Shown in pieces: positions 9,513-52,834 of a stretch of DNA of 64,000 bases (position 1 is the stretch's first letter; every line of letters begins with the position of its first letter). The notes under the pieces were generated by a model, which did not search any database, was not told the origin of the DNA, and worked only from the letters and a program-made list of their open reading frames with translations. The DNA is from a virus. Position numbers and translations under genes: made by a program. The stretch is taken from the IMG/VR virus record IMGVR_UViG_3300021957_000015, positions 15,170 through 79,169 of that record. The stretch is one strand, 5' to 3'.

Positions 9513-9520
9513 GTTCAAAG

Positions 9521-9558
9521 AGAGTGTGATATATAATCAAACGGTAATATCATACTCT
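9521..9558 (+). promoter_or_regulatory. 12-bp hairpin covering the translation initiation region, with a late-type promoter motif in its 5' arm
   Basis: AGAGTGTGATAT (9521-9532) pairs with ATATCATACTCT (9547-9558), one G-U; GATATATAA at 9528-9536; ATG at 9561. Confidence 0.6.
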
Positions 9559-9560
9559 AG

Positions 9561-26400: not shown

Positions 26401-29400
26401 AAACACAGTAAACATTTATTCTACATGTTTTGATTGTAGGAATGAATTAAATATAAAAGATAGTTATACCTTTCCAGTAGTTAATGATGCTGCGCTAGAT
26501 GCATTAGGTCCTAATTTTGATTTAGAAACAAATTATAAATTAGATAATGTTTCTAAGCCATTGTTAAGAACCAACCCTAAACTTACAACCAATGTAAAAT
26601 TAGTTGTAAATTCTGAAGATAAATTATACTTGGAAAGCATAAGTGCTACAAAAGAATTAGCTGCAATAGAATACAAGAAATTCCCAATAAACAAGGATGG
26701 AAAATATTCATACGATGTTGCTAATTTCTATAATGTAAATATGACTCCTAATGATCTTATGTTTACTACAAAAAGAGACTATTCAGATATTACTGTTTTA
26801 GATTCTTATGAGAAGCAACTAGAAGAGACATACCAGTATGGGACTAATTACAATGCATCAAAATTACATAGTGAAGACTTTAGGATTTTTGCACCTATTT
26901 GGTTAGATACAAATATTCCTAAAAACTTTGTAATTTACAGAGTAAATGATCCAGTAGGATCTCTAAATCTAGGAAACAATGCTGCTGATAATTTTAACAG
27001 AATAAAAAGTATATTAAAGAATTCTGAAATAATAGAAACGTTTGATTTAACAAGAGATTCTAATATAGGTAACTATTTAAGGAATCATATTCAAGACGAA
27101 ACATTCCCATCATCTCCGTTAACTATTAATTTTGAAAAATCTGCAAAATCTAGTTTTAATGGAATAGATCTTATTAAAGGTGGGTTTACACGTAAAGCAG
27201 AGTATTTGTATAAGAGTTATTCATTAACAGATAAACCATTGATAGAAGCTAACGATTTTATTACAGATTCGTTTAAAAGAAATGAAATTGCTTCCGCAAA
27301 TTTAATCAACTTAGAATTTTTATTTAACGATGACTCGGCTACTGAATATAGCATTAATAGGTATTTCGGTATATATGTTGATGATATAGAATCGGGATAT
27401 GGTAGAGTTGTTTCGGTAGATGGTAAGGTATACACATTTAAGGAATTAAATTCTACAGTAGATGCTAATGTACCTGAAACTGCTATACCATCATACAATC
27501 AAATTAGTAATATGCCGATGTTAGGATATGTTTCGGCTGGTAATAAATTCTTTAATATTTCTAGTAACACATATTACGATGCTAATCAATGGAAGGTTGC
27601 AGTAGAGGACGGTAGTAATAAAATTCAAGAACATTTAGGTATTCAAAGCACTAATAGATCAGTTGATCTAGTGTCTAATGATGATCATGGTTATGACTTT
27701 ATTAAGTTGAGTATAATTGATACTCCGTATACTAATGATTCATTAGGAATTACTTATATTAAGGAGGAAGCTAATAGGTTTACATTCATTAAACATGTAG
27801 CAAACCAGACTATTAGGTTTGAAATAGATGATCCTTCTGACTTTCAGAATACTTTAACGTTTTCTGTAAATAGTCAAAGTACAATAACTGACACAATAGC
27901 CGCTATTAAAACACGCGTTGAAACTGAAACAGATGAGGACTTACCTTTATTTAAAGAAATATATGATATTACATTTGACGATAAGTCAATATTCTTAACT
28001 GAAAAGAGAGCTAACTTAGGAGACTTTAATTTAAGAATTACATCACAAGGTGATTGTATTATTAGAAATGATTCTATTCAAACTAATGTAGGTTTAGAAA
28101 AGCACACTTATTATGCTGAGTCCCAGTTAGAAGCTAAATCATTTAAAGGTTTAAGATATTCTAATCTAGGTACATCTACTGATATTGCAGTTGCTTTATC
28201 TTCTTGTATAAACGCAAACGAAACAGAGTTTACTTCTATTAACGTAGGAGCTAACGTGTATATTATTAGTAATGTATCTGGTTATCAGTTAATGCAATCT
28301 TGTGTTTTATTAGGTAAGACCAATGTAAACGATTTTGTTTTATTAGAAAATCTAGATAGCTTAAATAAGCTTAATCTAAGACAGAATTTTCAATTCCTAA
28401 GCGGTCAAGCTATTTTACAAAAATTTAATGCATATTATTTATCAGGTGGAAATGCGCCAGAAAAATCAGTTTTTGTAAATAACGAAACCGTAAGTGAAAT
28501 AAACATTAATGATTATATAGAAACCAGATATAAAGGTGTATACAATAAAGTTATAGACATAGTTGAAGATATTAGAACGTCTGATAACATATATTCGAAG
28601 GTTATTTTAGAAGACAAAAACGATTTAAGTTCAGGCGATACTAAAATATTTTACGAAAATGAAATTAGATTAGGTTTATTTTCTGCATATAATATCTACG
28701 ATATGAATTTTGATTTCTATGATACTGATAACTCTGAATTAAAAGAATTGGCATACGAAACTCAAGAAGAGATAGAGTATGAACCATATATAAATGCTAT
28801 TAACAATATTGATGAGGCAACCGGTATAGAAACGACCATATTAAGTGCTAGAGATATCTTTAGTGAAGATTTCGAACTAAACCCAATAAATTATTTTTCT
28901 AATTTATCTAAAATATTAACAGAGGAATCTGTTGATGAAGAAGAAGACGAACAATTAACTTCAGAGTATGACAGACTTAAAGAGAACAATTTAAAAAAAT
29001 ATGCAACTAATTCTAGAATAGTACCTAATATTAATAAGTGGGTACTTAAGGATACTGTAACAGTTAGGGAACAGCCATATTATTTAAATGTTAACGAAGC
29101 ATTTGGTAGAACTAATTTCTCCCCGGATTTAACAGTATCTGAAAGAAGTCGAGAGTCTATGACACATGAGTGGTTTTATTTAGAGAAGCCACCAAAATAT
29201 TTAAAATATAATCAACTTAATGACACATTTAGTTATGTTAATTTTATAGAAGGTTTTGATTTAAGCGCTAATTTATTTAAAAGCACTACTAACAATTATT
29301 TTGATAAATTCATGATCAGTGATGGTTTTGAAAAAACATTGACTAGTGAAGATTTAGTATCTATATATAGCGACATAAATGAAAACGACACAGAACTTAA

Positions 29401-31471
29401 TTCATTAGAAGGTGAAATAACTTCATTTATTAAAACTAACATTCTTAAAAAATATACACTAATCGAAGGTGGAAATAATGTATCTTTTGCTAGTACTATA
29501 TTTAAAGGGATTAAGGTTGATTTTAAAAATAGAAAAGAATTTGTAAATAGTACTGCTAGTGAATTTGTAAATAGTAGTGAATTTAACGGTTACAAATTTA
29601 GTATTTTACTTAAAGTAAATGATAATGTTGAAACTAATAGTATAGAGTATGAAGTAATTCAAAACAAAGAATTCAAGTTTGTTATTATGTATATTACTTT
29701 AAACTTAGGTGATTATTGGATTGATGGAAACATGAATAGAAAATTATTGTATGAATTAAATCATAAAATAGTTTTTGATTCTAATCAAAATGATTTTACA
29801 TACGCAGATACTAAGTTTAACGGAGCATTACAATTTAATAGTACATCTGTAAACTGGGCAGAAGAAGGACCATATACTATTCCGGGTATTCCACATCTTA
29901 ACGGAAGTTTACCTAAATTTGATTCTCAGATAACTTTAGGTGATGATGGATTATATGGTGATATTTACATAGACTTATTTCCAAATGACGATACTAATTC
30001 TATTTATAAAGTTAGTGTAGCGGGTGTTGAATCTGATAATTCTATAAAAATCACAGGAAAACCTGTTAATGACAATGGAGATATACTCAACATTGAATTT
30101 TTACCTAATTCTATTCAAAAGAACGCTTCATATTCATATGTTGGTGGAGGTGCAAACGCACATAGAGTTATATTAGAAAATTTAACAGCTAAATCAGTTG
30201 CTGATCTAGTTAATTTAAATAATAATGATGTTACATATACTACTATAGAAAGTGACGGAACAATTTTAAATAATCAATTTGTAATAAACTTCAGCGATGG
30301 TACTGAAATAATAACCAGATCTGACCTGAATATAGAAGAAGACACCGATAAACCCAAGAGTTTTAAATTATTTAAGGGTAATATTGGATATAATCTAATA
30401 AAAGAACAAGAGTATTACCCATTCTTAATAAGACAAAACGGTAAATATACAGTAGATATGAAACCTGTTGTGACATTTACTGATGCGTATTCTCATTTTA
30501 AAGTTAATAGATTACATTTAACATCTAACGATAACGAATTATTATTTGAACAATCATTGTATAAACATTCGTTAACAGATATAACTGAATTTAACAGAGC
30601 AGCTGCTTACTATAAGAAATATAATAAATGTGGAATAGTATTTAACTTAGGTTATATTAGTGATACTGGTAATCACGATTCAAATTGGGGATTAATAAAA
30701 AATCATTTCTATCATAAAGTAAATGAAATAAATCCAGGAGGTGTAACTAAACTTTCTGCAACAAGTGATAAATTACCACTTTATCCTTTAATTGGAGAAA
30801 TAGCAATAGATAAAAAAGACGTAAACGTATTTAGATCTTCATGGGATTCTGATTATTATACAAGGTCTCTTGCCGGTGGAAATTCGACAAACGTACCCGG
30901 AACTTTAGACACACATGAAGAAAGATCATATATGTCCTCTACTGTAATGAAACCTAAGTATTCCTATAATCTTTTAGATTTTAATACATCTTATGTTTCT
31001 TCGGAAGAAGAGTTAGATGACATATTAAGAAACGGTGATAATTCAAGTGATACCGTATTATTTGAAAATAAAAATTACATTATTATAGACTTTTACATAA
31101 GTGATACACTAATTACTAAACTTGCAAAAGAAGGTGTATTAGATAGCATATCTAAATATGTTTTACCCGCTAATTCAGCTGGAAATAAAGAAACATTAAA
31201 TGACGATGCACTTATGTATGCTGAGAATAATTTAATAAAAACATATATACTTGATTCAGTTCAATTATACACAAAACAATTTAAGGGCAAAGGATCTAAG
31301 ATTATTAATGCAGTTACTGTAGATCAATTAGATGCAGATGGATTTACTCCAGATAATAATAATTTTGCATATAGAAATCACATTCAAAAGCCAATGAATT
31401 TTAGGTTGATATATAATAAAAGATTAGGCTACTCTTATGATATAAAACCTATGATAAAAATAAAGTCATAA
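23402..31471 (+). CDS. Giant virion protein with Pro-Thr linker, Ig/cadherin-like repeats and Cys-capped modules
   Basis: 2689 aa; APTPTPTATPT linker; APTANDNT...DTFTYTVED and NTAPTF...DSFVITATD Ig/cadherin-like repeats. Confidence 0.65.
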   Translation: MAKQLIIFDTSTSHLDSSNVCSYDRSGTQLTLYCNDLDDILTDDNVQLFTTSAGADTEDDTLEWTFSGDAGGNWFYVQSIEGTSRHGAIKILPTGVTASGTDGKFSACPPIYSIEFQDDNGNAITNANEGDTVKIYVDAFSDTSLNGNTVSLQIDGTYNGATIDDISISSLTDIVLSVGSSVGADSRQFTGELGFDIVSDADPTEELVIIATPEQVGSSAQTITLNLLAAPTPTPTATPTATPTPTPTPLPDFTCALAAVNVDDLNGLAVGTTIDSNDIQISNGGTFNSITPLVIGSNTQTYDVVVNVPSGYNNNGTITCQVTIAGDSAPTANDNTISATQGISTVIDLFNLVIDDNTSDSNLTWSISESSTFNGTLSTFNQATGAIIYTAPQISFGSPAIQDTFTYTVEDSIGQTATGTITINVSAASNTAPTFNNTPYNISVELNSTEPIVFPFSATDQENQNITYSISAPTFGTATIDFSTNTFSYLTAAGNTAPDSFVITATDSEGASSSETVNVTISAGTYYAFNKTGFFASEDEACLTETINIGYARVTQSTKISDIAVGDEIYLDETGNLFISNNVSKYFKITQLTGNGNLLEQVISVNSSGIVESVSSCSVQSDKFKETLVRYSGSETSICNNFGGEKVKVAYGVNDSSDPAKDLQTLVADNTILFVSSYWANQYSNGFNEDLEGQIPAGLYQAEFETSTYYKRGTENNWVSNPGGWSCPPEIVYSTYELSNIYYADNIDELCNGKTTTTSLWYSLPEGEATKDFDTIVNLNIPVYTSQLTASENTIEGLAQSGVYSNNLDGSGYVWNNEGDGFDFSWFGFNSQNQFIKSNGSTQIFTQNCNIIKAPNINLTNLPGEIEGDRGINDTNVYYAFYGCEAYEDQDNRLGTESYYWKLYVVDAGVDVVLDENVTVQVGQSYLNDFINTWRDSSTADYSTDIVFQPNGFKCVSYVNTIYAEDINNAANKLSDHGYGAINDIKIVTTNPVNLGFGSENTVNIYSTCFDCRNELNIKDSYTFPVVNDAALDALGPNFDLETNYKLDNVSKPLLRTNPKLTTNVKLVVNSEDKLYLESISATKELAAIEYKKFPINKDGKYSYDVANFYNVNMTPNDLMFTTKRDYSDITVLDSYEKQLEETYQYGTNYNASKLHSEDFRIFAPIWLDTNIPKNFVIYRVNDPVGSLNLGNNAADNFNRIKSILKNSEIIETFDLTRDSNIGNYLRNHIQDETFPSSPLTINFEKSAKSSFNGIDLIKGGFTRKAEYLYKSYSLTDKPLIEANDFITDSFKRNEIASANLINLEFLFNDDSATEYSINRYFGIYVDDIESGYGRVVSVDGKVYTFKELNSTVDANVPETAIPSYNQISNMPMLGYVSAGNKFFNISSNTYYDANQWKVAVEDGSNKIQEHLGIQSTNRSVDLVSNDDHGYDFIKLSIIDTPYTNDSLGITYIKEEANRFTFIKHVANQTIRFEIDDPSDFQNTLTFSVNSQSTITDTIAAIKTRVETETDEDLPLFKEIYDITFDDKSIFLTEKRANLGDFNLRITSQGDCIIRNDSIQTNVGLEKHTYYAESQLEAKSFKGLRYSNLGTSTDIAVALSSCINANETEFTSINVGANVYIISNVSGYQLMQSCVLLGKTNVNDFVLLENLDSLNKLNLRQNFQFLSGQAILQKFNAYYLSGGNAPEKSVFVNNETVSEININDYIETRYKGVYNKVIDIVEDIRTSDNIYSKVILEDKNDLSSGDTKIFYENEIRLGLFSAYNIYDMNFDFYDTDNSELKELAYETQEEIEYEPYINAINNIDEATGIETTILSARDIFSEDFELNPINYFSNLSKILTEESVDEEEDEQLTSEYDRLKENNLKKYATNSRIVPNINKWVLKDTVTVREQPYYLNVNEAFGRTNFSPDLTVSERSRESMTHEWFYLEKPPKYLKYNQLNDTFSYVNFIEGFDLSANLFKSTTNNYFDKFMISDGFEKTLTSEDLVSIYSDINENDTELNSLEGEITSFIKTNILKKYTLIEGGNNVSFASTIFKGIKVDFKNRKEFVNSTASEFVNSSEFNGYKFSILLKVNDNVETNSIEYEVIQNKEFKFVIMYITLNLGDYWIDGNMNRKLLYELNHKIVFDSNQNDFTYADTKFNGALQFNSTSVNWAEEGPYTIPGIPHLNGSLPKFDSQITLGDDGLYGDIYIDLFPNDDTNSIYKVSVAGVESDNSIKITGKPVNDNGDILNIEFLPNSIQKNASYSYVGGGANAHRVILENLTAKSVADLVNLNNNDVTYTTIESDGTILNNQFVINFSDGTEIITRSDLNIEEDTDKPKSFKLFKGNIGYNLIKEQEYYPFLIRQNGKYTVDMKPVVTFTDAYSHFKVNRLHLTSNDNELLFEQSLYKHSLTDITEFNRAAAYYKKYNKCGIVFNLGYISDTGNHDSNWGLIKNHFYHKVNEINPGGVTKLSATSDKLPLYPLIGEIAIDKKDVNVFRSSWDSDYYTRSLAGGNSTNVPGTLDTHEERSYMSSTVMKPKYSYNLLDFNTSYVSSEEELDDILRNGDNSSDTVLFENKNYIIIDFYISDTLITKLAKEGVLDSISKYVLPANSAGNKETLNDDALMYAENNLIKTYILDSVQLYTKQFKGKGSKIINAVTVDQLDADGFTPDNNNFAYRNHIQKPMNFRLIYNKRLGYSYDIKPMIKIKS

Positions 31472-36670: not shown

Positions 36671-37222
36671 ATGATTTTAAATAGTAGAAATAATACATTT
36701 GATTTTAAATTTCCTAGAAATTTTATACCCAAAGAGGTAGCAGAAAAATATAAAAAATATTTAACAAAAGTACCTGGCTCAGTTTTAGCAGAGCCTATAG
36801 ATTTTGTTAACTATTCTATACAAGGAGTTAATATTCCTGGAGTTTCATTTGATCCTATATCACAAGCTGATAATGATGGATCTATAAGATATCAAAGAGG
36901 TGCTGTTCCTATTCAAAATACAATAGAAAGACAATTTACGGTAACTATGCAATTGTTAGATGGTTTTATAAATTATTGGATAATGATGGACACATTATTA
37001 TATTATTACGCAAGATCAACTACTGAACCATATACTGAACCTTTAACTTTAAGAATATTAGATTCTGAGGGAGCTTCAGTTGCATATATGCAATTTGCTA
37101 AACCTATTATGAATTCTATTAATGAATTAAATTTAAATTTCTCAGATAATATTTCTGAATTTAGTACATTTGAAATAAACTTCTATTACAATCAATTAAA
37201 ACTAAGATTAGAAGTAGAATAA
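36671..37222 (+). CDS. gp3: Tail completion/tube terminator protein, gp3-like (tail-tube fold)
   Basis: VNYSIQGVNIPGVSF motif; LTLRILD; FSTFEINFYY C-terminus. Confidence 0.6.
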   Translation: MILNSRNNTFDFKFPRNFIPKEVAEKYKKYLTKVPGSVLAEPIDFVNYSIQGVNIPGVSFDPISQADNDGSIRYQRGAVPIQNTIERQFTVTMQLLDGFINYWIMMDTLLYYYARSTTEPYTEPLTLRILDSEGASVAYMQFAKPIMNSINELNLNFSDNISEFSTFEINFYYNQLKLRLEVE

Positions 37223-37234
37223 TATATATACAAT

Positions 37235-37786
37235 ATGAAACATTTACTTACATTAGAAAGTTATTATTCTTATAAGGATTTTGAAAAAGGAAGATGGGGA
37301 ACACCTTCTGAAATTGAAGAAGACCTTAGAATGACTATTGTAAATTTACTTACATATGCTGGTATTTCAGATAATTTAGATGATGTTGAATACAAAGACG
37401 AATCTAATGATAAAGGAATAAAGTGGGAAATAACTATCAAGCATTCTGAGGGTACAGATATATTACATGCTTACAAAAGAACTAATTGGAGAGGACAATA
37501 TGAATTATACTTAAATAAGAAGAAGTCAACTGCATATGATATTCAACAGACATTCTTAAAAAAGTTTGTATCGCCATTAGATCAATATTTAGCTTCAATG
37601 AAGTCGTTTGATAAACACTATCAATATGCAGATGATAATAGATCCTACAAAAGTGGGTCGGCACATGCTGAAAGATTAAGAGAAATGTATAAAACATTAC
37701 AATCTTCGGACAAAAAGAAAGCATATAAAGAATTTAATAAAAAACATGGAACTGATTTACCATTTAAGGATTTTTCAGGATCATAA
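37235..37786 (+). CDS. Hypothetical protein with capsid-targeting-like N-terminus
   Basis: Starts MKHLLTLESY; preceded by ATATATA motif. Confidence 0.6.
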   Translation: MKHLLTLESYYSYKDFEKGRWGTPSEIEEDLRMTIVNLLTYAGISDNLDDVEYKDESNDKGIKWEITIKHSEGTDILHAYKRTNWRGQYELYLNKKKSTAYDIQQTFLKKFVSPLDQYLASMKSFDKHYQYADDNRSYKSGSAHAERLREMYKTLQSSDKKKAYKEFNKKHGTDLPFKDFSGS

Positions 37787-37804: not shown

Positions 37805-38263
37805 ATGGCAAAACAAAAAATTTACACAGTATGGGGATCTAACCCAGAAAAAGGTGATCGTTTCGATAAAGCAGAAGAGTGGATGGCTGCTGTATTTGAA
37901 TCTGAAGAAGAAGCTAACGCTTTTAAGGATGCTGAAAGTAAAAATTACAAGTTCATAGAACAAAGTATTCATGCAGATGTTTCTTCAGGTTTTCGTGTAG
38001 CTAGTGGTTTTCACAGCGCTAGAATTTTCTGCGAGAGTATGTCTGAGAATAAAGCTAAAAAACAATTATTAAATTTAAACACTAGATGTTCAGCTTACTT
38101 TAAGAAGCCTATAAGTGGTGGAAGCTATGTTAAATTTAATAAAGATGGATTTGTTGAGGGCAAAGGATATAAATTTTACTCTAATGAAGATAATGCAATC
38201 CAAGAATCTAAAAAAGTATTAAGCCACTTACTGTTATTTGAACAATTTATTAATAAACACTAA
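37805..38263 (+). CDS. Hypothetical protein with capsid-targeting-like C-terminus
   Basis: Ends IQESKKVLSHLLLFEQFINKH. Confidence 0.6.
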   Translation: MAKQKIYTVWGSNPEKGDRFDKAEEWMAAVFESEEEANAFKDAESKNYKFIEQSIHADVSSGFRVASGFHSARIFCESMSENKAKKQLLNLNTRCSAYFKKPISGGSYVKFNKDGFVEGKGYKFYSNEDNAIQESKKVLSHLLLFEQFINKH

Positions 38264-38289
38264 GTTTAATAATCAAAGATATATACAAT

Positions 38290-38658
38290 ATGAAAACATT
38301 TAATAAATACTTAGTAGAGGAAAAGATTACTGAAAACGACATGGAAGTTCTTAAAGAAAACTTACAGTCTGAGTGGACTCCTGAATTAGAATCTAAAATA
38401 GATGCAGCAATAGAGGAATTTTGTAAAACTTACCAAAACGAAGATGGTACATATGACTTAGACAAGTTAAATGAAGAAATAACTAACGAAGGTCTTCTAG
38501 GTTCTATTATAGGTGGTTTAACTGGATTTGCTCTAGGAAAATCAGTTGGTAAATTATTAGCTAGAGTATTAGGTATTCAAAAGGGTATATTATTTGATTT
38601 ATTAACCTCAAGACTTGTAGGTGCTGCATTAGGTGCTAGTCTTGGTAAAAGATTCTAA
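38290..38658 (+). CDS. Small protein: acidic N-terminal half plus cationic glycine-zipper C-terminal half
   Basis: Starts MKTFNKYLVEE; after ITNE comes GLLGSIIGGLTGFALGKSVG...LVGAALGASLGKRF. Confidence 0.7.
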   Translation: MKTFNKYLVEEKITENDMEVLKENLQSEWTPELESKIDAAIEEFCKTYQNEDGTYDLDKLNEEITNEGLLGSIIGGLTGFALGKSVGKLLARVLGIQKGILFDLLTSRLVGAALGASLGKRF

Positions 38659-39717: not shown

Positions 39718-40638
39718 ATGAGCGAATCATTTGACATTTTTAACTTGGGCGTAGAAGACGTAGAAACGCATCAGCCCGAAAGAACAACAGTAAACGAAGT
39801 TTACAAACCAACAGCCGATGACGGCAAAGACGGAACTTATAAAGCGCTAATCCGCTTCGTTCCAAATCCAGAGAATCCAAGAAATTCTCTAATTCAAAAA
39901 TACGTACACTGGTTAACTAATTCTAGTGGTGACGGTAAATTGGTAGATTCACCATCTTCAATAGGTGAAAAATGCCCAATCGCAGATGTATTCTGGAAAC
40001 TGAGAAAATCAGATTCAGCAGTAGATCGCAAGTCATCAGAGAAATTAAAGAGACGTCAGCAGTATTATTCTTTAATTAAGATTGTAAAAGATCCACAAAA
40101 CCCAGAATTAGAAGGTACTTATAAAGTATTTAAATTCGGTTACAAGATTAAAGAAAAAATCGATGCTGAATTGAAACCAGATTTCGGTGAACCAACACAG
40201 GTGTTTGACTTATTCGAAGGTAAGAACTTTGAGTTGATCATTACTCGCCAAGGTGAATATAATAATTATGATAAGTCTAAATTCTCAGCTAGTACTTCTG
40301 CAATTTTAATGGGCGATACTCCAGCAGAAAGAAATAAAGAGACAATGACTGCAATCAAAACTGAGTTAGAAAACGCACCATCTCTTGTAAACTATGATTA
40401 CAAAGCATGGGACGAAGATACTAGATCTTTTGTAAATGATGTATTAAGAATGTACTTAAATCCTGGAGATTCTATCTCAGCGATGACAAGTAGTTCAACA
40501 TCTACACCAAAGAAAGCCACTACAAGTGCAACAACGGTAGTTGAAGCAGAGGCTCCTGTAAAGACAGAATCAAAAGAAACTGCAGCAGTTAGTACAGATG
40601 ACGATCTTGATTCTTTCTTGAATGACCTCGACATCTAA
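39718..40638 (+). CDS. gp32: Single-stranded DNA-binding protein, T4 gp32-like
   Basis: YKALIRFVP, KCPIAD, IVKDPQNPELEG..KVFKFGYKIKEKI, FDLFEGKNF, NNYDKSKF; acidic tail DDDLDSFLNDLDI. Confidence 0.9.
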   Translation: MSESFDIFNLGVEDVETHQPERTTVNEVYKPTADDGKDGTYKALIRFVPNPENPRNSLIQKYVHWLTNSSGDGKLVDSPSSIGEKCPIADVFWKLRKSDSAVDRKSSEKLKRRQQYYSLIKIVKDPQNPELEGTYKVFKFGYKIKEKIDAELKPDFGEPTQVFDLFEGKNFELIITRQGEYNNYDKSKFSASTSAILMGDTPAERNKETMTAIKTELENAPSLVNYDYKAWDEDTRSFVNDVLRMYLNPGDSISAMTSSSTSTPKKATTSATTVVEAEAPVKTESKETAAVSTDDDLDSFLNDLDI

Positions 40639-43910: not shown

Positions 43911-45740
43911 ATGGATAAATTAAAAAACTTCGAGCAATTTGCTAAGGTAAAAACCGAACGTGATGCCGCTCAATTAAAAGAAGAGCAAGATTCTAAAAGA
44001 TCAGCAGAAGCTAATACCTTCAAATCTCTTTTATCAGAATTCAATGTCACTTCTATTAAAGAATTATCAGAAGATCAAAAATCTGAATTTTTTACTAAAC
44101 TAAGAGGTGTTGAGGTTTCTGAATCCTTTTTAATTATAGAAGGAACTAGAGGACAGTTTGGTAAAATAGACAAAAAAGGTAACATAGAATCAGTGTATAC
44201 ACATTACGACTCATATCCTGATAACATGCTACCACTTATCAAGAAAACATATTTAAAAGGTGGTTCACCTCTAAATATGGTTCTTAAAAATGGAGATAAT
44301 TCAGGTTTAGAAGCTGATCCAAGAGGAATGAACTACTACGGAGACTCCGATAATATGAAAGGTAACGTTAAAAACATTGACAGATACATTTCAACAGCAG
44401 GCGATAAAGGTGGTGCAGAATTCATTTACCTTTTTGATGAAAAATCAGGAAAGTGGTTAATGGCAGACATATATGCAGGTGATAAAGATTTAAAACCAGC
44501 ATTTGAATCTGTAGAAATTAATGAAGCTATTAAAGTAGAAGGTAAGAGAGATGCTAAGAAAGTAGTAACTCAGTATAATCAAATTTTGTTTTCTAAATTA
44601 AATGCAATCGGTGCATCTAACGATAAGAAGACTTTATTGGGTGCAATTAAAAAATTATTCTTAGATTCAATGGAAGATGCTAATTTCCATAGAGAAAGAG
44701 AAAAGTGTGCAGGCGCTATCAAAGGTAATATAGGATCTATTCCAGTAATAGTTGATGGTTTAGGCAAAATGTCAGTAAACATTGGATCAACAAGAATTAA
44801 AGATGCGTTAGAAAAAGAATATTCTAGAATTTCAAATGCAGCTGGATGGTCAGGTCAAGGTATTGCAGAAGGAACTGCATTATTCTTAGAGCAGTGTGGC
44901 TTTGCTAAAATGGGACAAGATTTACTAGATAGGTTTAACTCTTTCTTTGAAGGTGAAGTAAAAGACAACTTTGAATTTAGAATGTTTGAAACTATTAAAT
45001 ATGCAGAAAGTGTATTAGAAGCTACTGTAGTTATGGATGCAACAGATCCTGGATCTAAAGTATTAAAAAAATTACTTAAGAAACACAAAGTTACAATGGA
45101 GATCATCGATAACGAAGGTCCAACAGGTTTCCCAGAAGTTGAATTAACGGGTTCAAGAGAAGATCTACAATCAGTGTTAGGCTCTGACGATGGTTGGGGT
45201 GATCCTGAATTAGGGGAATACATTGAAGAATCTAACGAAACCTTTAAGATTAAAGTTAAAGCTTTAAATGAAGCTAAATTTGTAAAAGATTTTAATAAAG
45301 ATGTTTTAGGTGCTGAAACTAAAGAAGATATAAAATCTTATTATCCATCAGCTAAATTCTTTATTGGTAAATTGACACACTTCTTTGGAGAACTAGAACC
45401 TAACCTATTCTTTAAAGCTTACTATGCTAGATACTACAAAGAAGATACGGGCAAGAAAATTAAAGGTGACTTTAAAATTACTTCAATCTACTCTGAAAAG
45501 GGTAGTAATTATGTTCACTTACACAATGAATCTGCTAAAACAGTAGAAGCTCCAAAAGTAAACGAAGCAGAAGTTACTTCAGACGAAGAATTTAAAGAGT
45601 ATGCATTTTCAGTATTAAAGAAAGCATTCGGAGATGAATTTGACGAAGATAAGGCAGGTGAAGTTGTAGACGGATTAATTTCTAAAAACTCAGGAGATTA
45701 CGGTGCTATGGTTGGTGCCTTAAAATCATCACTAGGGTAA
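43911..45740 (+). CDS. Modular putative internal-head polyprotein
   Basis: Starts MDKLKNFEQF; domains separated by IIE/INE/VLE/LNE/VNE; YTHYDSYP module; one module shared with 48952-50775. Confidence 0.6.
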   Translation: MDKLKNFEQFAKVKTERDAAQLKEEQDSKRSAEANTFKSLLSEFNVTSIKELSEDQKSEFFTKLRGVEVSESFLIIEGTRGQFGKIDKKGNIESVYTHYDSYPDNMLPLIKKTYLKGGSPLNMVLKNGDNSGLEADPRGMNYYGDSDNMKGNVKNIDRYISTAGDKGGAEFIYLFDEKSGKWLMADIYAGDKDLKPAFESVEINEAIKVEGKRDAKKVVTQYNQILFSKLNAIGASNDKKTLLGAIKKLFLDSMEDANFHREREKCAGAIKGNIGSIPVIVDGLGKMSVNIGSTRIKDALEKEYSRISNAAGWSGQGIAEGTALFLEQCGFAKMGQDLLDRFNSFFEGEVKDNFEFRMFETIKYAESVLEATVVMDATDPGSKVLKKLLKKHKVTMEIIDNEGPTGFPEVELTGSREDLQSVLGSDDGWGDPELGEYIEESNETFKIKVKALNEAKFVKDFNKDVLGAETKEDIKSYYPSAKFFIGKLTHFFGELEPNLFFKAYYARYYKEDTGKKIKGDFKITSIYSEKGSNYVHLHNESAKTVEAPKVNEAEVTSDEEFKEYAFSVLKKAFGDEFDEDKAGEVVDGLISKNSGDYGAMVGALKSSLG

Positions 45741-45751
45741 AAACAATATAT

Positions 45752-45782
45752 AAACTAGAGAGCATAACACTCTCTAGTTTTT
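45752..45782 (+). terminator. Hairpin, probable intrinsic terminator or attenuator
   Basis: AAACTAGAGAG-cataaca-CTCTCTAGTTT (11 bp) followed by T residues. Confidence 0.55.
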
Positions 45783-45795
45783 ACTTTCAACTACT

Positions 45796-47067
45796 ATGAA
45801 AATATATACAGACTTTAGTACATTTATAACTGAAAGGGTTCATTTACAAGAATCTAATTTAATATTAGAAGGTGGAGCAGCCGGCCACATGTCACACCCG
45901 TTTGATAACAAGTCATTGACATTCGGCGATTTTAAAAAGCTTATAGAATCTGGATTAAGTGGAGAACTTAATTTTGAAGAAGATCCTACTGAAAAAACAG
46001 ATGGCCAAAATTTATTTGCAACTGTTAAAGATGGAGAAACAATGTTTGCCAGAAATAAGGGTCAAATGAAAAATCCAATAGACCTAAACGGTATTATTAA
46101 GATGTTTACTGGTCACGCTTCTAAATTAGTAGAAGAAACATATATTTTTGCAGCAAAAGATTTAGCTGACGCTTTACCAAAACTTAAGGATCAATCAATG
46201 TTTGCAAACGGATTAAATTTCGTTAACATGGAATTGATCTACTCTAAAAATCCCAACGTGATATATTATGATAGAGATGTTATTCAATTTCACAATATAA
46301 CAGAAACAGACGGAGAAGGTAATCAAACAGGAACTCAAAATTTAGCAACAGAATTAGTAGGTGCTTTAAAAGAATTAAAGAAAGATGTTCAAAACACATT
46401 TACTATAATTCCACCACAAGTATTAAAGATTGCTAAAGACGTTGACTTTGAAGCAAACAAGTCAAAATTCATTAAACAAGTAGAAGCATTAAAGAATCGT
46501 TATAAATTAACAGATGCTGACGAAGTTTCCAGATATCATGAAATGTGGTGGAGAGAAACGATAGACACAAATTTCCCTGATCTAGAACAAAACCATAAAG
46601 AAGGTTTATTATTAAGATGGGCATATGGCGATAAGAAAACTTTAAACTTAAGATCATTAGACAAAGCTATCGGTAAAGACAAAGCTGCACTAATTAAGAA
46701 GTTTGATAAAGAAGATGTTAAAAAGAAGTATAAAGAAAACATTAGACCATTTGAAGATCTATTCTTAGAATTAGGATCAGTAATCTTGAAAAACGCAAGT
46801 AACTTTGTAGCTGCATCGCCAGATAAAGAAATGCAAAGACTACATAATCAAATTAGAACTGAAGCTGCTAAGATTAAAAAATCAGGTGGAATTGATCAGA
46901 TTAAAAAAGTTGAAGCTGAACTTGCTAGACTAGAAAGAATCGGTGGAATAGAGTCTATTATACCAACTGAAGGTTTAGTTTTTAAATATAAGGGACATAC
47001 TTATAAACTAACTGGAACTTTTGCTGCAATTAATCAATTAATGGGAATTATTAAATACGGTAGATAA
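45796..47067 (+). CDS. RNA-ligase-like covalent nucleotidyltransferase (DUF6267-like)
   Basis: Motif I TEKTDGQN, motif IV EGLVF, motif V YKLTG; N-terminal MKIYTDFSTFITE...LILEGGAAGHMSHPFD. Confidence 0.6.
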   Translation: MKIYTDFSTFITERVHLQESNLILEGGAAGHMSHPFDNKSLTFGDFKKLIESGLSGELNFEEDPTEKTDGQNLFATVKDGETMFARNKGQMKNPIDLNGIIKMFTGHASKLVEETYIFAAKDLADALPKLKDQSMFANGLNFVNMELIYSKNPNVIYYDRDVIQFHNITETDGEGNQTGTQNLATELVGALKELKKDVQNTFTIIPPQVLKIAKDVDFEANKSKFIKQVEALKNRYKLTDADEVSRYHEMWWRETIDTNFPDLEQNHKEGLLLRWAYGDKKTLNLRSLDKAIGKDKAALIKKFDKEDVKKKYKENIRPFEDLFLELGSVILKNASNFVAASPDKEMQRLHNQIRTEAAKIKKSGGIDQIKKVEAELARLERIGGIESIIPTEGLVFKYKGHTYKLTGTFAAINQLMGIIKYGR

Positions 47068-47069
47068 CA

Positions 47070-48914
47070 ATGGCATTACAGAACTTAAAAACATATTTTG
47101 AATCAACTAATATCAATGACTTTAAAAAGTTACTAGATAATATTTGCGTCGTAACCGAAAAGGTACAAGCTTCAAGTTTTCATGTTAGAAGAGATGAGAT
47201 TGACGTTTTTGAATTTTTTAAAAGCGGTTCAAAAACACCTATTAATAAAGTAGACAGAACGTTAGTAAAATATTATGAAAACGGAATTAAACACTTTAAC
47301 ACAATATCAGATGTTATTCTAAATGAAATGCCAAAGGATTGGAAATTCGGGTTTGATTACATGTTAGAAACCAAAACTGTAGATATAGAATATGACAATG
47401 TTCCTAAAAACAATCTTATATTAACACATATACAGGTTTTAAATCCTTCAGATCCCTCTAAAGTAAAAAAAGTAATTAGAGATCCTAGAATTTTAGAAAA
47501 ATGGGCTGGTTTATTAGATGTACAGCCAATATCTGTACTTTTTCAAGGTCAATTGGCATCTAATCAGAAAGATGACTTAATATCATTATTATCACTGGGC
47601 ACTGAAGAATTTAAAAAGAAATTTAAAAACCAATCTTTTACAAGAACTATTTATCACATATTCGATAACGGTAGAAATAAGTCAGCATTAAACTTGGATT
47701 TAGATAAAGACATTGATGCGCTAGTTATTAATTTTTATGAAGATAGGACACCTAAAAGTTTTAAGCTAGAAAGATTCGATAGAGAATCTGCACCAAATAG
47801 AAAATCATCAGACATGTATCAAATATCGATACTAGATTTAGTTGAATTCTTAACTTCATTTGATTTATCAGATATAAAATTAAAAGAAGAAAAGGCGGAT
47901 TTAAGATATGTAGAACTAATTTCATCTATATTTAATGCGTATGTTGAAAAGCATGCTACAAAATATGTAGGCGCTGATTTTGATTCAGCTGATTTTGCAG
48001 AAGGAGAATCATTTGAACTTAATACAGCATTTATGTCAAATGAAAAAACAATATCACTTGTACAAAATAAAGTACTAGCTGAATTGTTCAAAATAGCATT
48101 AGGATCTTTTAGAAAAAAGAGAACTAAAGAAACAGATATCATTAACGCAGATTTATTATCTCAAATTAATGAAATAGTTGAAGAAATAGATACTATTGTA
48201 ATGGGTAAAACAAATGAAAAAGATGTAATGGATTTTAAAAAATATCTAATTAATCAAAAACTAAATGGAGATGTAAGTCCAATAATGGAAGGATTAACTG
48301 TAAATTATCCAGATCAAGGTAAAAAGCCAGTCAATATGTTTGTCGGTAGATTTCAACCGTTCACATTAGGACATGCTAAAGTAATAGACACTATCAGCAA
48401 ACAAAATGGACACCCTGTTGTTGTAATATTGATTAAATCAAAGACTAAGAAAAAAGAAGATGCGTTTAAAAGACCATACGACGAGGAAACTCAATTAGCA
48501 ATGCTTAATAAATTAAAGTCTAAATACCCAATAGAAAAAGTATACATTTTAGATAGAGCTGCAATAGATTACATGTTTAACGCAATGCGAGCAGATGGTT
48601 ACGAACCAGTGCTTTGGGGAACAGGAACAGATAGACTTAAAACATATTCGTATCAAGTTGATAAACCAGAATATAGAGAATCTTTAAATTGTAGAGAAGA
48701 TTTCGGTTTATTTGAAATCCCTAGATCTGGTAAAAACATTTCAGCAACACAGGTTAGAAATGCAATGTTAGACGGTGATGAAAAAACATTTAAAAAATTA
48801 ACACCTAGACCAATTCATGGTATGTATACTGAATTGAGAACAAAATTAGAGGTTTCTATGGGTGTCGCAGAGTCAAAATTCATGACATTTGAACAGTTTG
48901 TGAAGAAAGACTAA
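47070..48914 (+). CDS. Degenerate ligase-like domain fused to HxGH-type (cytidyltransferase/NMNAT-like) nucleotidyltransferase
   Basis: N-terminal VTEKVQASSF; C-terminal domain VGRFQPFTLGH...GTDR...ISATQVR; ends FMTFEQFVKKD. Confidence 0.7.
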   Translation: MALQNLKTYFESTNINDFKKLLDNICVVTEKVQASSFHVRRDEIDVFEFFKSGSKTPINKVDRTLVKYYENGIKHFNTISDVILNEMPKDWKFGFDYMLETKTVDIEYDNVPKNNLILTHIQVLNPSDPSKVKKVIRDPRILEKWAGLLDVQPISVLFQGQLASNQKDDLISLLSLGTEEFKKKFKNQSFTRTIYHIFDNGRNKSALNLDLDKDIDALVINFYEDRTPKSFKLERFDRESAPNRKSSDMYQISILDLVEFLTSFDLSDIKLKEEKADLRYVELISSIFNAYVEKHATKYVGADFDSADFAEGESFELNTAFMSNEKTISLVQNKVLAELFKIALGSFRKKRTKETDIINADLLSQINEIVEEIDTIVMGKTNEKDVMDFKKYLINQKLNGDVSPIMEGLTVNYPDQGKKPVNMFVGRFQPFTLGHAKVIDTISKQNGHPVVVILIKSKTKKKEDAFKRPYDEETQLAMLNKLKSKYPIEKVYILDRAAIDYMFNAMRADGYEPVLWGTGTDRLKTYSYQVDKPEYRESLNCREDFGLFEIPRSGKNISATQVRNAMLDGDEKTFKKLTPRPIHGMYTELRTKLEVSMGVAESKFMTFEQFVKKD

Positions 48915-48951
48915 TATATAGTATAAGAATATAAAATATAGAAAATTAAAA

Positions 48952-50775
48952 ATGAAAAAATTCGAAGAATTTATCGGTGAAGGTAAAATCACTTTAAAGA
49001 GAAGATATACTGAAAACCACCCTGCAGTTACCGCAGGAACACACGCAAAAATTAGAAATAAAGTATTAGAAGCTATCGCTGATGGAACTTTAACTCAAGA
49101 AGAATTCGATAATATTCTAAAAGAGATGTCAAGCAATTCTGGTAGATGGATGAGAAGAAACGCAAAATACTTTAATGTGGCAGAATCTGGAATATCTCTT
49201 TCTAAATTTGGAAGAAAGATACTTAACACTATCAGTATATCTGAAGCAGAGATTGAAGAAGGTAATGCTTTCGGTGATGCTGTAAGAAAAGCCAAAGAAA
49301 ACGGAGACAAAGAATTCGAATTTGATGGTAAAACCTACCCAGTAAAAGAAGGTAGAGGATTTGTTGCGGCTGCTAAAAAAGCAAAAGACGCAGGTGAAAA
49401 AGAATTCGAATTTAATGGTAAAACATTTCCAGTTTTAATCAAAGAAGACGAAGAAGTTGAAGAATCAGTAGTTACTGAAGACTCACTTTCAGGTATAGAA
49501 TTTGGAAACGATGATGACATACACCCAACTGAATTTAAACCATTAGTTAAATCTTTAAAGAAGAACAAAGTTAAAATGGAAGTTGAAAAAGAAGAAGGAT
49601 CACATGGATATCCTGAAGTTAAATTAACCGGTAAAAGAAAAGATATCGAAAATGTTTTGGCTGATGTATGGGGTCCAGACTCAGTTTCTGATTATGAAGA
49701 TTACTTTGAATCAGTAGTTACTGAATCGACAGAAGATACTGAATCGACAGAAGATACTAAATCTAATCATATACACGAATCTTTTTCAAGTTTCGTAGAA
49801 AGCTTAAATGAAGCTTTTGGTTCAATGAAGCTTTCTAAGTTATTTACAAACACTAGGGGTAAAGTTGATAAAGCATTATCAGGTGCATTTTATGGTAAAA
49901 CTAAAGTTGCTTTAGATAAAGTACAGGATGAAGATCTTATTGATACTGATCCAATGACAGCGTACAAGGCAAAACAAACAAATACTATTGTTTTTTACAT
50001 CTCAGATAATGAGAAACCTAATCCATATGCACCGAGCGATGCATACAGTTCTGATAAAGTTATTCCAGGTGGAAGTTACTTATTAGCTGTAGCAAGTGGA
50101 GGTAATGAATTTTACACAAACACATGGACTAGCAGATATTCTAGTAGAGACAGAGACAGAACTCTAAAAACTACTCCTAATAATTCAAGTGATACTATTG
50201 GTATTTCTAAGAAGTACAAAGGATGGGATGCAACTGGTCTTTACAATGTAAAAAGAATTGCAGAAGTTGCAGATAGAGCAGTTGTTATCAATATAGATCT
50301 ATTACAACAAAAATATTCTACAGCTAATAAAAGATCTGAAAGATCAAGCGCTAAAGCTGGTGCGATTGCATTTAAATCTGATAAAGACTTTAAACAAGAA
50401 AACAAAAACAGATATACTCAAATCTTAGCTACTAAAGCAGCTGCATTGCCATTAGATAAAATGGTTTCAGCGGCAATCGATGAATTAGCTAAACAAATTC
50501 AAGATGGTTTGAAAGCTGGAGAGAAAACAGAATACGGAGAAATCTACATTGGTAAAAACAAAAGAGGTTCTACTGTAAAATTAAAAGATGCTTCTTCACA
50601 CATGTCATCCATCTTAGACGATTACTCAAGATACTGTGATTATATCGCAAGATCTGAAGAGTCTGAAAAGAGATACGGTACAGGTGAAAGATGGTACGAA
50701 AGAGAAGCTAAGACATACGCTAAATCTATTAAAGATAGAATTAACAAAATCAAAACTTTCGATTACGCTTGGTAA
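48952..50775 (+). CDS. Modular putative internal-head polyprotein
   Basis: Starts MKKFEEFIGE; two tandem AK..G.KEFEF.GKT.PV units; ESVVTE-flanked module; internal HESFSSFVESLNE. Confidence 0.6.
   Translation: MKKFEEFIGEGKITLKRRYTENHPAVTAGTHAKIRNKVLEAIADGTLTQEEFDNILKEMSSNSGRWMRRNAKYFNVAESGISLSKFGRKILNTISISEAEIEEGNAFGDAVRKAKENGDKEFEFDGKTYPVKEGRGFVAAAKKAKDAGEKEFEFNGKTFPVLIKEDEEVEESVVTEDSLSGIEFGNDDDIHPTEFKPLVKSLKKNKVKMEVEKEEGSHGYPEVKLTGKRKDIENVLADVWGPDSVSDYEDYFESVVTESTEDTESTEDTKSNHIHESFSSFVESLNEAFGSMKLSKLFTNTRGKVDKALSGAFYGKTKVALDKVQDEDLIDTDPMTAYKAKQTNTIVFYISDNEKPNPYAPSDAYSSDKVIPGGSYLLAVASGGNEFYTNTWTSRYSSRDRDRTLKTTPNNSSDTIGISKKYKGWDATGLYNVKRIAEVADRAVVINIDLLQQKYSTANKRSERSSAKAGAIAFKSDKDFKQENKNRYTQILATKAAALPLDKMVSAAIDELAKQIQDGLKAGEKTEYGEIYIGKNKRGSTVKLKDASSHMSSILDDYSRYCDYIARSEESEKRYGTGERWYEREAKTYAKSIKDRINKIKTFDYAW
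49462..49725 (+). repeat. 18-bp perfect direct repeats flanking a protein module
   Basis: GAATCAGTAGTTACTGAA at 49462-49479 and 49708-49725, both encoding ESVVTE. Confidence 0.9.
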
Positions 50776-50807
50776 TCAATAAACTTACATAAATAAAAAA
50801 TATAAAA

Positions 50808-51347
50808 ATGAAACATTTACAATTATTTGAAGAATTTCTAAACGAAAAGGCATATAGAATGACAGGTATCTATGCAGCTAAGGGTTTAATAGGTGCTATT
50901 ATGCAGGCCTTTAAACAAGAAATCAAAAAAGTAAAATACGAAGGTATTAATGTAGTAACTCAAGAAGAAGTTAATAAAGAATGGGCTAAATTTGAAGATA
51001 CTGCTAAGAAAATGATTTTAGATCAAGTAGAAAAAGGAGCAGGTGGTATGGAAGGTGTTCTATATGTTACTGCTAATCTTTTTAATGGATTCGCTATAGA
51101 TGAGGTTAATGGTTTAAATTCTGAAGGATCAGATACGTTATACCTTGGTTATGAAGTTGTAATTAATGTAGGTTTCATGGACGATTTTAATGGCAAAAAG
51201 GTTTATAAGAAAATCGATAAGACCGGAATGATGAATTCCCCGCTAGCAAGTAAGAGAGATGTTATTTACGGTGAATACGATTCTGCAGTCGGTAACAACA
51301 ATCTAGAAATTAGAGATTCTGAATACATTCAGATTGACGGAAAATAA
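50808..51347 (+). CDS. Hypothetical protein with capsid-targeting-like N-terminus
   Basis: Starts MKHLQLFEEFLNE. Confidence 0.65.
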   Translation: MKHLQLFEEFLNEKAYRMTGIYAAKGLIGAIMQAFKQEIKKVKYEGINVVTQEEVNKEWAKFEDTAKKMILDQVEKGAGGMEGVLYVTANLFNGFAIDEVNGLNSEGSDTLYLGYEVVINVGFMDDFNGKKVYKKIDKTGMMNSPLASKRDVIYGEYDSAVGNNNLEIRDSEYIQIDGK

Positions 51348-51356
51348 TATTATAAA

Positions 51357-52262
51357 ATGGCAAAGATATTTTACGTAAGAGAAAGATCTGGAGATTATGC
51401 TCAGGTTAATTTTTTTAAAACAGAAAAAGAAGCATTAAACTACGGTATATCTGAATGGCCAGACTTCGATATGTTTGGTGACGAAGAAGATGAAGACGAT
51501 TCATATGACATGGATAATGATACATGGTGGGTTGGAGATTCAATAGACTTTAAGAAAGGCATTTTATTTTCGTTTGAAGAAGGTATGGTTTATGTTCAAG
51601 GAATGGACGATGCCGCTGCAAGAGAATATGTTAAAGAAGAAGTTGGAGAATATGGCGCTGCTATTTTCTTTGATGGTTTCAAAAAAGGAATGTATGGTTA
51701 CTTAGGTAATGGTGCAGACGGTAAAGGTTACAAATGGGACTGGGACGGCATAGACTTAAATGAAAGTTCTAAACCACATTCTTTTAAAAGATTTTTAGAA
51801 AACATTACACCTTCTAATATGGCAGGTATGGGACCAGTTGCTTTACCAGTTTCAGGTGCTGATGGTTCAGGAGATGTGCCTGCCGGACAAGGCGATGCCG
51901 AAGATGAATTTGAAAAGGCAAAAAAAGAGAAAGAGGCTAGAGATAAAAAGAAAGCCAACAACGAATCTTTTGTAAAAAGCTTTGAATCATTTTCATTTGA
52001 TTTTGAAGGCATAGATATTAAAAATCCATTTACAGATGAGACTGCAAGGATGGATGTAGATCCAAAACAGTATTACGGAAAGGAATACGCTAAGTCAGAT
52101 ATTAAAAAGATAGTTGACGCTAGTGAAGAATTTATTAGTAAATATAAAGAATGGAAAGAATATCAACCATTAGATGCAGATGAAGATATGCATGCTGATT
52201 ATGGTGAACATATAAAAGCATCTCTAGATAAATTAACAACATTAGTTAAAAAATTAGGATAA
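51357..52262 (+). CDS. Acidic modular hypothetical protein
   Basis: Internal LNESSKPHSFKRFLE and NESFVKSFESF motifs. Confidence 0.6.
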   Translation: MAKIFYVRERSGDYAQVNFFKTEKEALNYGISEWPDFDMFGDEEDEDDSYDMDNDTWWVGDSIDFKKGILFSFEEGMVYVQGMDDAAAREYVKEEVGEYGAAIFFDGFKKGMYGYLGNGADGKGYKWDWDGIDLNESSKPHSFKRFLENITPSNMAGMGPVALPVSGADGSGDVPAGQGDAEDEFEKAKKEKEARDKKKANNESFVKSFESFSFDFEGIDIKNPFTDETARMDVDPKQYYGKEYAKSDIKKIVDASEEFISKYKEWKEYQPLDADEDMHADYGEHIKASLDKLTTLVKKLG

Positions 52263-52292: not shown

Positions 52293-52317
52293 AGCCCACT
52301 AGATGTGGGCTTTTTTT
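52293..52317 (+). terminator. Rho-independent terminator
   Basis: AGCCCAC-tagat-GTGGGCT followed by a T run, at the end of the late/cargo gene block. Confidence 0.85.
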
Positions 52318-52336
52318 ATGAAAAAAAGTGAGCCAG

Positions 52337-52370
52337 GATTTTTTTATGTCAAATATTTGTGGTATATTAG
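52337..52370 (+). promoter_or_regulatory. Early promoter, repeat copy 1
   Basis: GATTTTTTTATGTCAAATATTTGTGGTATATTAG; 32/34 identical to 52776-52809; TATATTAG resembles the Bacteroidota -7 element TAnnTTTG. Confidence 0.7.
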
Positions 52371-52376
52371 CAGTAT

Positions 52377-52766: not shown

Positions 52767-52775
52767 GTCACTCCA

Positions 52776-52809
52776 GATTTTTTTATGTCATTTATTTGTG
52801 GTATATTAG
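52776..52809 (+). promoter_or_regulatory. Early promoter, repeat copy 2
   Basis: GATTTTTTTATGTCATTTATTTGTGGTATATTAG. Confidence 0.7.
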
Positions 52810-52834
52810 TAGAGTAATTAAAAGAGTAATAGAA

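Follow-up and report, generated by a model that had tools for sequence, protein, structure and literature searches.

Bacteriophage T4 directs its internal proteins IPII and IPIII, and also Alt, gp67 and gp68, by means of a capsid-targeting sequence (CTS), a terminal peptide of 10-13 residues carried by otherwise unrelated proteins and removed by the gp21 prohead protease. The first 10 residues of IPIII (MKTYQEFIAE, as read from the T4 genome NC_000866) are enough for packaging (PMC9026906; background in PMC5694885). Mutagenesis of the T4 CTS has linked residues 4 and 7 to targeting and residues 8 and 10 to processing, and Asp at residue 10 blocks processing while leaving targeting intact (PMC9026906). 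A family of comparable short peptides, here called tags, occurs on about 12 proteins encoded by a linear 79,169-bp viral contig, IMG/VR record IMGVR_UViG_3300021957_000015 (CheckV completeness 29%); the window analyzed here is the 64,000-nucleotide stretch that spans positions 15,170-79,169 of that contig. We put the probability at roughly 0.6 that the tag is a T4-type CTS, in an enlarged variant usable at both protein ends, and the tagged proteins are probably capsid cargo that undergoes trimming and is delivered by injection together with the DNA. In the literature searched, no description of this tag family was found for marine or Bacteroidota jumbo phages.

The likeness to T4 extends over several features. 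The tags are terminal peptides on otherwise unrelated proteins, with two aromatic residues spaced three apart, then an aliphatic residue, and Glu two residues further on; the short forms MKKFEEFIGE and MKTFNKYLVE match the T4 spacing exactly. As in T4, the lineage has gp20, gp21, gp22-like and gp23 homologs and a late-type promoter on tagged genes, and the tagged loci are hypervariable, as are the T4 internal-protein loci. There are also clear differences. Most copies here are of a long form that contains three extra residues, the carriers are more numerous (about 12 on 79 kb, and at least 22 in the uncultured jumbo-phage genome LR756500.1), and they include enzymes and multi-module chains in addition to small basic proteins. 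Tags also occur internally and at C-termini, in the latter case with a cleavage-type site upstream.

Two other systems invite comparison. In phiKZ-like giant phages (phiKZ, 201phi2-1, SPN3US), a gp21-related protease cuts after S/A/G-x-E; many head-internal and ejection proteins are processed, and their propeptides have been inferred to direct incorporation (PMC5694885, PMC9026906). Those propeptides, however, are mostly 80-130 residues long and have no common short tag, the specificity logo differs, and the lineage described here is of the T4 type, its capsid protein being of the Gp23 family and its portal of the Portal_T4 family. Encapsulins offer an analogy only, in that a short peptide at either terminus brings unrelated enzymes into an HK97-fold shell. 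Unlike the proposed system, encapsulin cargo is not protease-cleaved, its loading peptide has a different, Gly/Leu-rich consensus, and there is no encapsulin shell here.

The tagged and associated open reading frames (ORFs) of the window are listed below and are named after their first nucleotide. Downward arrows mark putative cleavage positions, and the late-promoter motif is RATATATA.

37235-37786, + strand: 183 amino acids; degenerate leader MKHLLTLESYYSY at 37235-37273; late-promoter motif at 37221.
37805-38263, + strand: 152 amino acids; C-terminal tag core FEQFINK at 38237-38257; IQE↓S at 38198-38206.
38290-38658, + strand: 122 amino acids; short-form tag MKTFNKYLVE at 38290-38319; late-promoter motif at 38278.
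43911-45740, + strand: modular protein of 609 amino acids; variant tag MDKLKNFEQFAKVKTE at 43911-43958; late-promoter motif at 43868; internal [ILV]xE↓A sites INE (44517-44525), VLE (45012-45020), LNE (45264-45272) and VNE (45558-45566).
45796-47067, + strand: predicted Rnl1-like RNA ligase of 423 amino acids; long-form tag MKIYTDFSTFITE at 45796-45834; late-promoter motif at 45745; variable linker with LQE↓S at 45844-45852; catalytic domain from Leu22; KxDG at K67-G70.
47070-48914, + strand: 614 amino acids; N-terminal domain; predicted NMNAT/cytidylyltransferase-like domain at 48309-48815; C-terminal tag core FEQFVKK at 48888-48908; VAE↓S at 48864-48872.
48952-50775, + strand: modular protein of 607 amino acids; short-form tag MKKFEEFIGE at 48952-48981; late-promoter motif at 48913; internal tag FSSFVESLNE↓A (F278-E287) at 49783-49812; 18-bp direct repeats at 49462-49479 and 49708-49725.
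50808-51347, + strand: 179 amino acids; long-form tag MKHLQLFEEFLNE at 50808-50846.
51357-52262, + strand: modular protein of 301 amino acids with no N-terminal tag; IDLNE↓SS at 51756-51764; tag-like SFKRFLE↓N at 51783-51800.

All ORFs named in the original prediction, which had placed the motif on nine otherwise unrelated proteins, are present on the + strand as listed. A strict pattern derived from its examples, [FY][EDS][EQSHT][FY][ILV].[EK], matches 8 times in the 76 ORFs of the contig (25,430 amino acids), compared with 0.35 in 2,000 shuffles (maximum 3); six of the matches are at residue 4 or 7, the other two are 8 residues away from a C-terminus, and none is internal. The looser pattern [FY]xx[FY][ILVM]xE is found within the first 14 residues of 7 of the 76 ORFs, against an expectation of 0.07, which amounts to an N-terminal enrichment of about 100-fold. 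Strong N-terminal tags are borne by ORFs 38290, 45796, 48952 and 50808, as well as by three ORFs that precede the window (contig positions 3755, 4455 and 9392). The short form has its aromatics at residues 4 and 7 (ORFs 48952 and 38290, the latter with Leu8 and Glu10), while the long form has them at residues 7 and 10 (ORFs 45796 and 50808 and the upstream copies). The motif is real. Two of the nine proposed members are weak: the leader of ORF 37235 (LESYYSY) is degenerate, having neither the aliphatic nor the Glu position, and that of ORF 43911 (FEQFAKV) is a variant without Glu at +6, the sixth residue after the first aromatic. The carriers are indeed unrelated by BLASTP, save for a module of about 100 residues common to ORFs 43911 and 48952.

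Beyond this contig, the N-terminal motif occurs in 22 of the 655 ORFs of LR756500.1 (1.2 expected), typically as the leader MKYI[KL]EYEEF[ILV]xE, and the LR756500.1 ortholog of ORF 38290 has FNSFVNE. Orthologs of ORF 43911 range from 209 to 902 amino acids and have leaders of the type SFxxF[AS]xE. In IMG/VR, the long-form DNA pattern matches at least 120 stretches, chiefly on large contigs. One of them, L209 (IMGVR_UViG_3300031566_000207), contains at least 14 consecutive small genes (94-270 amino acids), all of which start with the long form MK[HYN]IK[TS]FExF[IV]xE; by analogy, this array would be an extreme version of the T4 internal-protein locus.

The residues under constraint are most clearly seen in the leader of ORF 45796, for which 62 non-redundant orthologs (at least 73% identity) were aligned. 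Only four leader positions are constrained: position 7 (43 Phe, 18 Tyr, 1 Leu), position 10 (61 Phe, 1 Tyr), position 11 (Leu, Ile, Val or Met) and position 13, which is Glu in 62 of 62. The remaining leader positions vary almost at random, residues 15-21 are hypervariable and contain indels, and the domain is invariant from Leu22, as are K67, D69 and G70 of the KxDG motif. These conserved positions correspond to the functional positions of the T4 CTS.

A position matrix was derived from the jumbo-phage tags and nothing else, and each of the 49,823 heptamers in the T4 proteome was scored with it. The IPIII and IPII leaders (YQEFIAE) rank 3rd and 4th, and residues 59-65 of gp23 (FGSFLTE) rank 6th, a segment that ends at the gp23 maturation cut, after Glu65. 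The 9th rank is held by gp61.1 (MKTFKEFIKE). This 54-residue hypothetical protein is encoded beside the primase gene (NC_000866, 18966-19130, - strand), and its start is a near-copy of the IPII/IPIII CTS. A moderate score with the same matrix is obtained by the phage SSB (window 39718-40638), which ends in the acidic-aromatic tail DDDLDSFLNDLDI. This likeness may be a coincidence, or it may hint at more than one docking role for such peptides.

C-terminal tags, which the original prediction had proposed for ORFs 37805 and 47070, display a different arrangement of the putative cleavage site. ORF 47070 is predicted to carry a cytidylyltransferase/NMNAT-like domain: residues 414-582 score 36.4 bits against PF01467 (cut-off 21), the sequence GRFQPFTLGH fits the (H/T)xGH motif, and the best match to a solved structure is the NMNAT/Nudix protein PDB 2qjo (4e-5). 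Orthologs drawn from 80 IMG/VR loci provide 34 distinct C-termini, all of which keep [FY]xx[FY][ILVM] at 8-13 residues from the end. Glu at +6 is found in none of the 34, its place being taken by K, N, S or M, and 32 of them have Glu-Ser/Ala at a distance of 4-10 residues ahead of the tag, for the most part within [VLA]-x-E↓S; thus, a cut after Glu would free a protein of its tag at either end. The IQE↓S site of ORF 37805, 10 residues before the tag, agrees with this rule, and this ORF is an accessory insertion that is not present in G001, a 126-kb sister contig from IMG/VR. Because the LR756500.1 ortholog of ORF 47070 stops before the tagged extension, the C-terminal tag is an add-on. The original prediction also saw in the use of either end a departure from the T4 model; this was only partly right, as T4 Alt, which is also processed at its C-terminus, provides a precedent (PMC9026906).

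Sites of the type expected for a prohead protease also demarcate modules within the longer proteins. In the tagged proteins, [ILV][NT]E[ASGN] occurs 12 times against 2.0 expected, and between sister phages modules are gained or lost exactly at protease-type sites. Residues ~172-256 of ORF 48952 constitute an insertion relative to the G001 ortholog; the inserted module is homologous to part of ORF 43911 and is flanked by identical 18-bp repeats that encode ESVVTE. Conversely, the G001 ortholog of ORF 51357 contains an extra module of about 138 residues directly after IDLNE↓SS, and this module has an internal tag of its own, SFNAFINE. More broadly, the tagged locus is hypervariable among close relatives, with both genes and modules gained or lost. 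Of the internal tags that had been predicted, the one in ORF 48952 is conserved in G001, while the site proposed in ORF 51357 is weak; a better candidate in that protein is SFKRFLE (residues 142-148), just past IDLNE↓SS.

An analogous pattern is seen in distant relatives of the ligase. An exhaustive profile search collected 1,865 clusters of ligase homologs, many of them from Tara and other marine samples, and in the distant homologs the ligase is mostly the C-terminal module of a protein of 500-1,930 residues. Of 129 fused distant homologs, 41% have [ILV]xE at a distance of 0-3 residues ahead of the ligase domain (background 6.2%, p ~5e-30), and 22.5% have [ILV][NT]E there (background 1.1%). 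Only 2 of 127 long fused proteins begin with the present tag, and many have a different leader, MNxLSxFLVExILxE, with an NMNAT-like domain behind it (proteins P0124-P0270). With NMNAT-like domains at the start and ligase domains at the end of these long proteins, the modules are linked across lineages, and the address peptide is lineage-dependent. Microcystis phage Mel-JY01 encodes a direct fusion of a cytidylyltransferase with the ligase domain (L004:5305-7224). One ligase sublineage (P0069, P0073; loci L079-L108) contains two tags in tandem, the first (NNFVDFIQHH) without Glu and the second, about 33 residues on, a canonical LTFDEFIVE directly before the domain.

The assignment of ORF 45796 as an Rnl1/Trl1-like ATP-dependent RNA ligase is based on its KxDG motif and modeled fold. 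The AlphaFold2 model (pLDDT 86, pTM 0.80) has as its top Foldseek matches T4 Rnl1 (probability 0.99), fungal Trl1 ligase domains and archaeal RNA ligases, with low TM-scores (~0.23), and a sequence search against solved ligases gave no match. In the model, the tag forms an isolated helix of low confidence, and the linker behind it is disordered. Unlike the role proposed for ORF 45796, T4 Rnl1 is not known as a capsid protein. Pfam and PHROGs searches assigned no function to ORFs 37235, 37805, 50808 and 51357 or to most of ORFs 43911 and 48952 and detected no homology between the cargo proteins and the T4 internal proteins; Atlas searches gave no usable functional lead for the remaining carriers. 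The C-terminal half of ORF 38290 is glycine-zipper-like.

A T4-type head module lies on the sister contig. G001 is syntenic with the present contig, with 85-94% nucleotide identity across the 70 kb in common, and extends beyond that region into genes for Portal_T4 (2e-70), Peptidase_S77 (7e-11) and the Gp23 capsid protein (1e-46). The capsid protein starts with MANLINE↓SE, and at the gp67/68 position is a protein of 122 amino acids that has an acidic tail and starts with MKVIKTIESFAKE. In an ORF of 771 amino acids (L145:7606-9921), a gp21-family protease and a gp22-like scaffold are joined; after the protease domain come RVNE↓S, Y-x-E-x-[ILV]-A-E↓K/S repeats every ~14 residues, a long acidic tract and a conserved C-terminal domain. 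Similar [IL]AE↓[KS] units are present in T4 gp22, and the same protease-scaffold fusion, of 632 amino acids, is encoded at 226725-228623 of LR756500.1. Peptidase_S77 and Gp23 homologs are also encoded by LR756500.1 and by PTm5, a cultured relative. The scaffold repeat unit resembles the tags in having an aromatic residue at P7, an aliphatic one at P3 and Glu at P1. A complex prediction that combined a tag-bearing N-terminus with two copies of the G001 scaffold repeat region scored 0.00 and gives no answer either way.

Tagged and head genes also have an upstream signal in common. RATATATA occurs 22 times on the + strand of the contig, 15 of them intergenic, and not at all on the - strand, where about 20 would be expected, as on the + strand; G001 has 34 copies, mostly intergenic, on the + strand and 2 on the - strand. 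It is also depleted from most + strand coding sequence. Such purging from the - strand and from most + strand coding sequence points to strong selection around a strand-specific late-promoter signal. In G001, every head gene is preceded by the motif, which is found 12-100 nt ahead of the genes for the portal, the gp67-like protein, the protease-scaffold fusion, the capsid protein and the tail. The claim that most of the tagged genes follow this motif holds for ORFs 37235, 38290, 43911, 45796 and 48952 but not for ORFs 37805, 47070, 50808 and 51357, which lie downstream in operons. Judging by the promoter motif, the tagged genes are predicted to be expressed late, together with the head proteins.

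From these features, the following scheme can be proposed. Late in infection, tagged proteins would be made alongside the head proteins, and the two aromatics (i, i+3), situated on one face of a short helix, would dock each protein on the prohead scaffolding core, after which the gp21-family prohead protease would cleave after Glu. At N-termini the cut would fall at the end of the tag ([ILVM]-x-E), and at C-termini it would fall in a distinct [VLA]-x-E↓S sequence that precedes the tag by a few residues. In the longer proteins, internal cuts at [ILV]-[NT]-E junctions could free separate mature modules, which would remain in the head and exit with the DNA. Within such a scheme, the Rnl1-like ligase and the NMNAT-like nucleotidyltransferase would be plausible ready-made counter-defense enzymes. 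The sequences show the motif with its bias toward termini and its pattern of conservation, the likeness to T4 sites, the T4-type head genes of the sister genome, the late promoter in common and the two enzyme assignments. From these we infer docking, packaging, cleavage, injection and any anti-defense role alike, and the "effector" roles of the cargo, apart from the two enzyme assignments, are guesses.

The tag's two-aromatic, aliphatic and Glu positions, the cross-detection of T4 leaders, the gp21-family protease, the common promoter, the Glu sites and the junction sites agree with the capsid-targeting reading, and each of its testable sequence-level predictions came out as expected, with none contradicting it. 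Several observations nonetheless weigh against it. The protease and capsid genes were found on the sister contig and are absent from this 29%-complete one. The nearest cultured relatives, PTm1 and PTm5 (36% capsid identity), are without the tag. RATATATA also precedes the SSB operon and the ribonucleotide reductase gene nrdB, and it is therefore a late-type promoter that is not exclusive to virion genes. A high-scoring internal match, YEGFL[FL]E, occurs in the tail sheath, which is not an expected head cargo, and so the motif alone is not specific. Across the genome, the five-residue C-terminal core shows no enrichment, with 2 copies where 1.8 are expected; thus, the C-terminal claim is based on ortholog conservation only. 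Finally, the RNA ligase and the NMNAT-like enzyme would be equally useful if merely expressed in the cell, and a short acidic-aromatic peptide could bind another common partner.

The last of these points can be developed into an alternative that we regard as unlikely, in which the tag serves as a short linear motif for docking to another shared partner (for example a phage hub protein, a chaperone, a protein that acts in replication or interacts with SSB, or a factor for tail or baseplate loading) and is neither recognized by the prohead nor removed by its protease. A terminal position on a flexible linker, as modeled for ORF 45796, is typical of docking motifs, the SSB tail LDSFLND is similarly acidic-aromatic, several tagged genes lie among replication genes, and the carried enzymes would serve in the cytoplasm. 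This alternative, however, leaves unexplained why Glu is invariant at +6 in N-terminal tags while C-terminal tags lack it and have an upstream Glu-Ser instead, why [ILV][NT]E is enriched at module junctions, why the matrix detects the T4 internal-protein leaders and the gp23 cleavage site, and why the tagged genes use the head-gene promoter.

Less probable still is that the leader is an evolutionary by-product, either a gene-start cassette consisting of promoter and first codons or a recombination joint for swapping, with no targeting role. Hypervariability between close relatives, the insertion bounded by identical 18-bp repeats and the resemblance of C-terminal tags to the start of a lost downstream gene all fit such an origin. 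The longest DNA word common to the tags, however, is only 9 nt, and synonymous codons differ, so that selection acts on the peptide; recombination sites were rejected as the main explanation for this reason. Moreover, it is four amino acid positions and not the DNA that are conserved, the C-terminal tag is retained in the 34 diverged ortholog variants, and half of the tagged genes are missing a promoter motif of their own. An origin of this kind is compatible with capsid targeting, as in the T4 internal-protein loci, yet does not replace it. A compositional artifact has next to no probability: the genome is AT-rich (G+C content 32%), the motif residues (Phe and Glu, with Asn, Lys and Ile) have AT-rich codons, Met-Lys is a common start, and ORFs 37235 and 43911 are degenerate, but the shuffles, the N-terminal enrichment and the position-by-position conservation in 62 orthologs refute it, as does the AT-rich PTm5, in which 1 of 298 ORFs carries the motif against 0.5 expected, with no N-terminal concentration. 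On balance, the original reading as T4-like capsid targeting is partly supported, by the conserved positions, the detection of T4 leaders and the gp21-family protease of the sister genome, and its effector assignments stand as guesses beyond the two enzymes. More tentatively, the capsid-targeting reading might be extended to a two-ended and modular address code used throughout a clade of abundant marine jumbo phages. It would be composed of a cleavable N-terminal tag, a C-terminal tag with its upstream cut site, internal tags and xNE joints; the tag would mimic the scaffold repeat, and swappable enzyme kits, including for instance a ligase of the tRNA-repair type and NMNAT-like transferases, would be loaded, cut apart and injected as counter-defense; we doubt this broader version more than we favor it.

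The surrounding genome is that of a large phage. Every real gene lies on the + strand, and baseplate, sheath, tube and fiber genes are followed by a RuvC-like gene and by those for SSB, primase, helicase and ribonucleotide reductase, with several tagged genes placed among the replication genes. Megablast of the region against GenBank phages gave no match. The large conserved proteins match jumbo phages only, namely LR756500.1 (uncultured, 462 kb, 35%), which shows synteny to the window, Tenacibaculum phages PTm1, PTm5 and pT24, "Sphingomonas" phage PAU, Chryseobacterium and Flavobacterium phages, and Lak phages; the contig is therefore taken to be a piece of a T4-related jumbo myophage of ~270 kb. 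The host of this marine phage probably belongs to the Bacteroidota. A second upstream element, TTTTTTATGTC...TATTTGTGGTATATTAG, precedes three small genes (window ~52,310-52,376 and 52,770-52,834; contig 430-490). It contains a TAnnTTTG-like box, comparable to Bacteroidota promoters, and because of this box it probably belongs to an early, host-polymerase promoter class, which also hints at the host phylum. In the baseplate/tail block (window 8214-10871 and 23402-31471), late-promoter motifs precede genes for an S1-domain protein and an amidoligase-like protein, and further on in the same block is an ORF of 2,689 amino acids.

If the capsid-targeting reading is correct, the proteins that are probably packaged in the head and injected could be read directly from sequence for a large group of phages that is uncultured and abundant in the environment. 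The T4 principle of capsid targeting, seen there on a handful of small internal proteins, would take in enzymes and multi-module chains as well, and the tag would be predicted to function at either end of a protein. Candidates for counter-defense would then be the Rnl1-like ligase, against anticodon nucleases, and the NMNAT-like enzyme, against NAD depletion. The tags would, in addition, constitute natural variants of a packaging signal that is already in use for loading foreign proteins into T4 heads.

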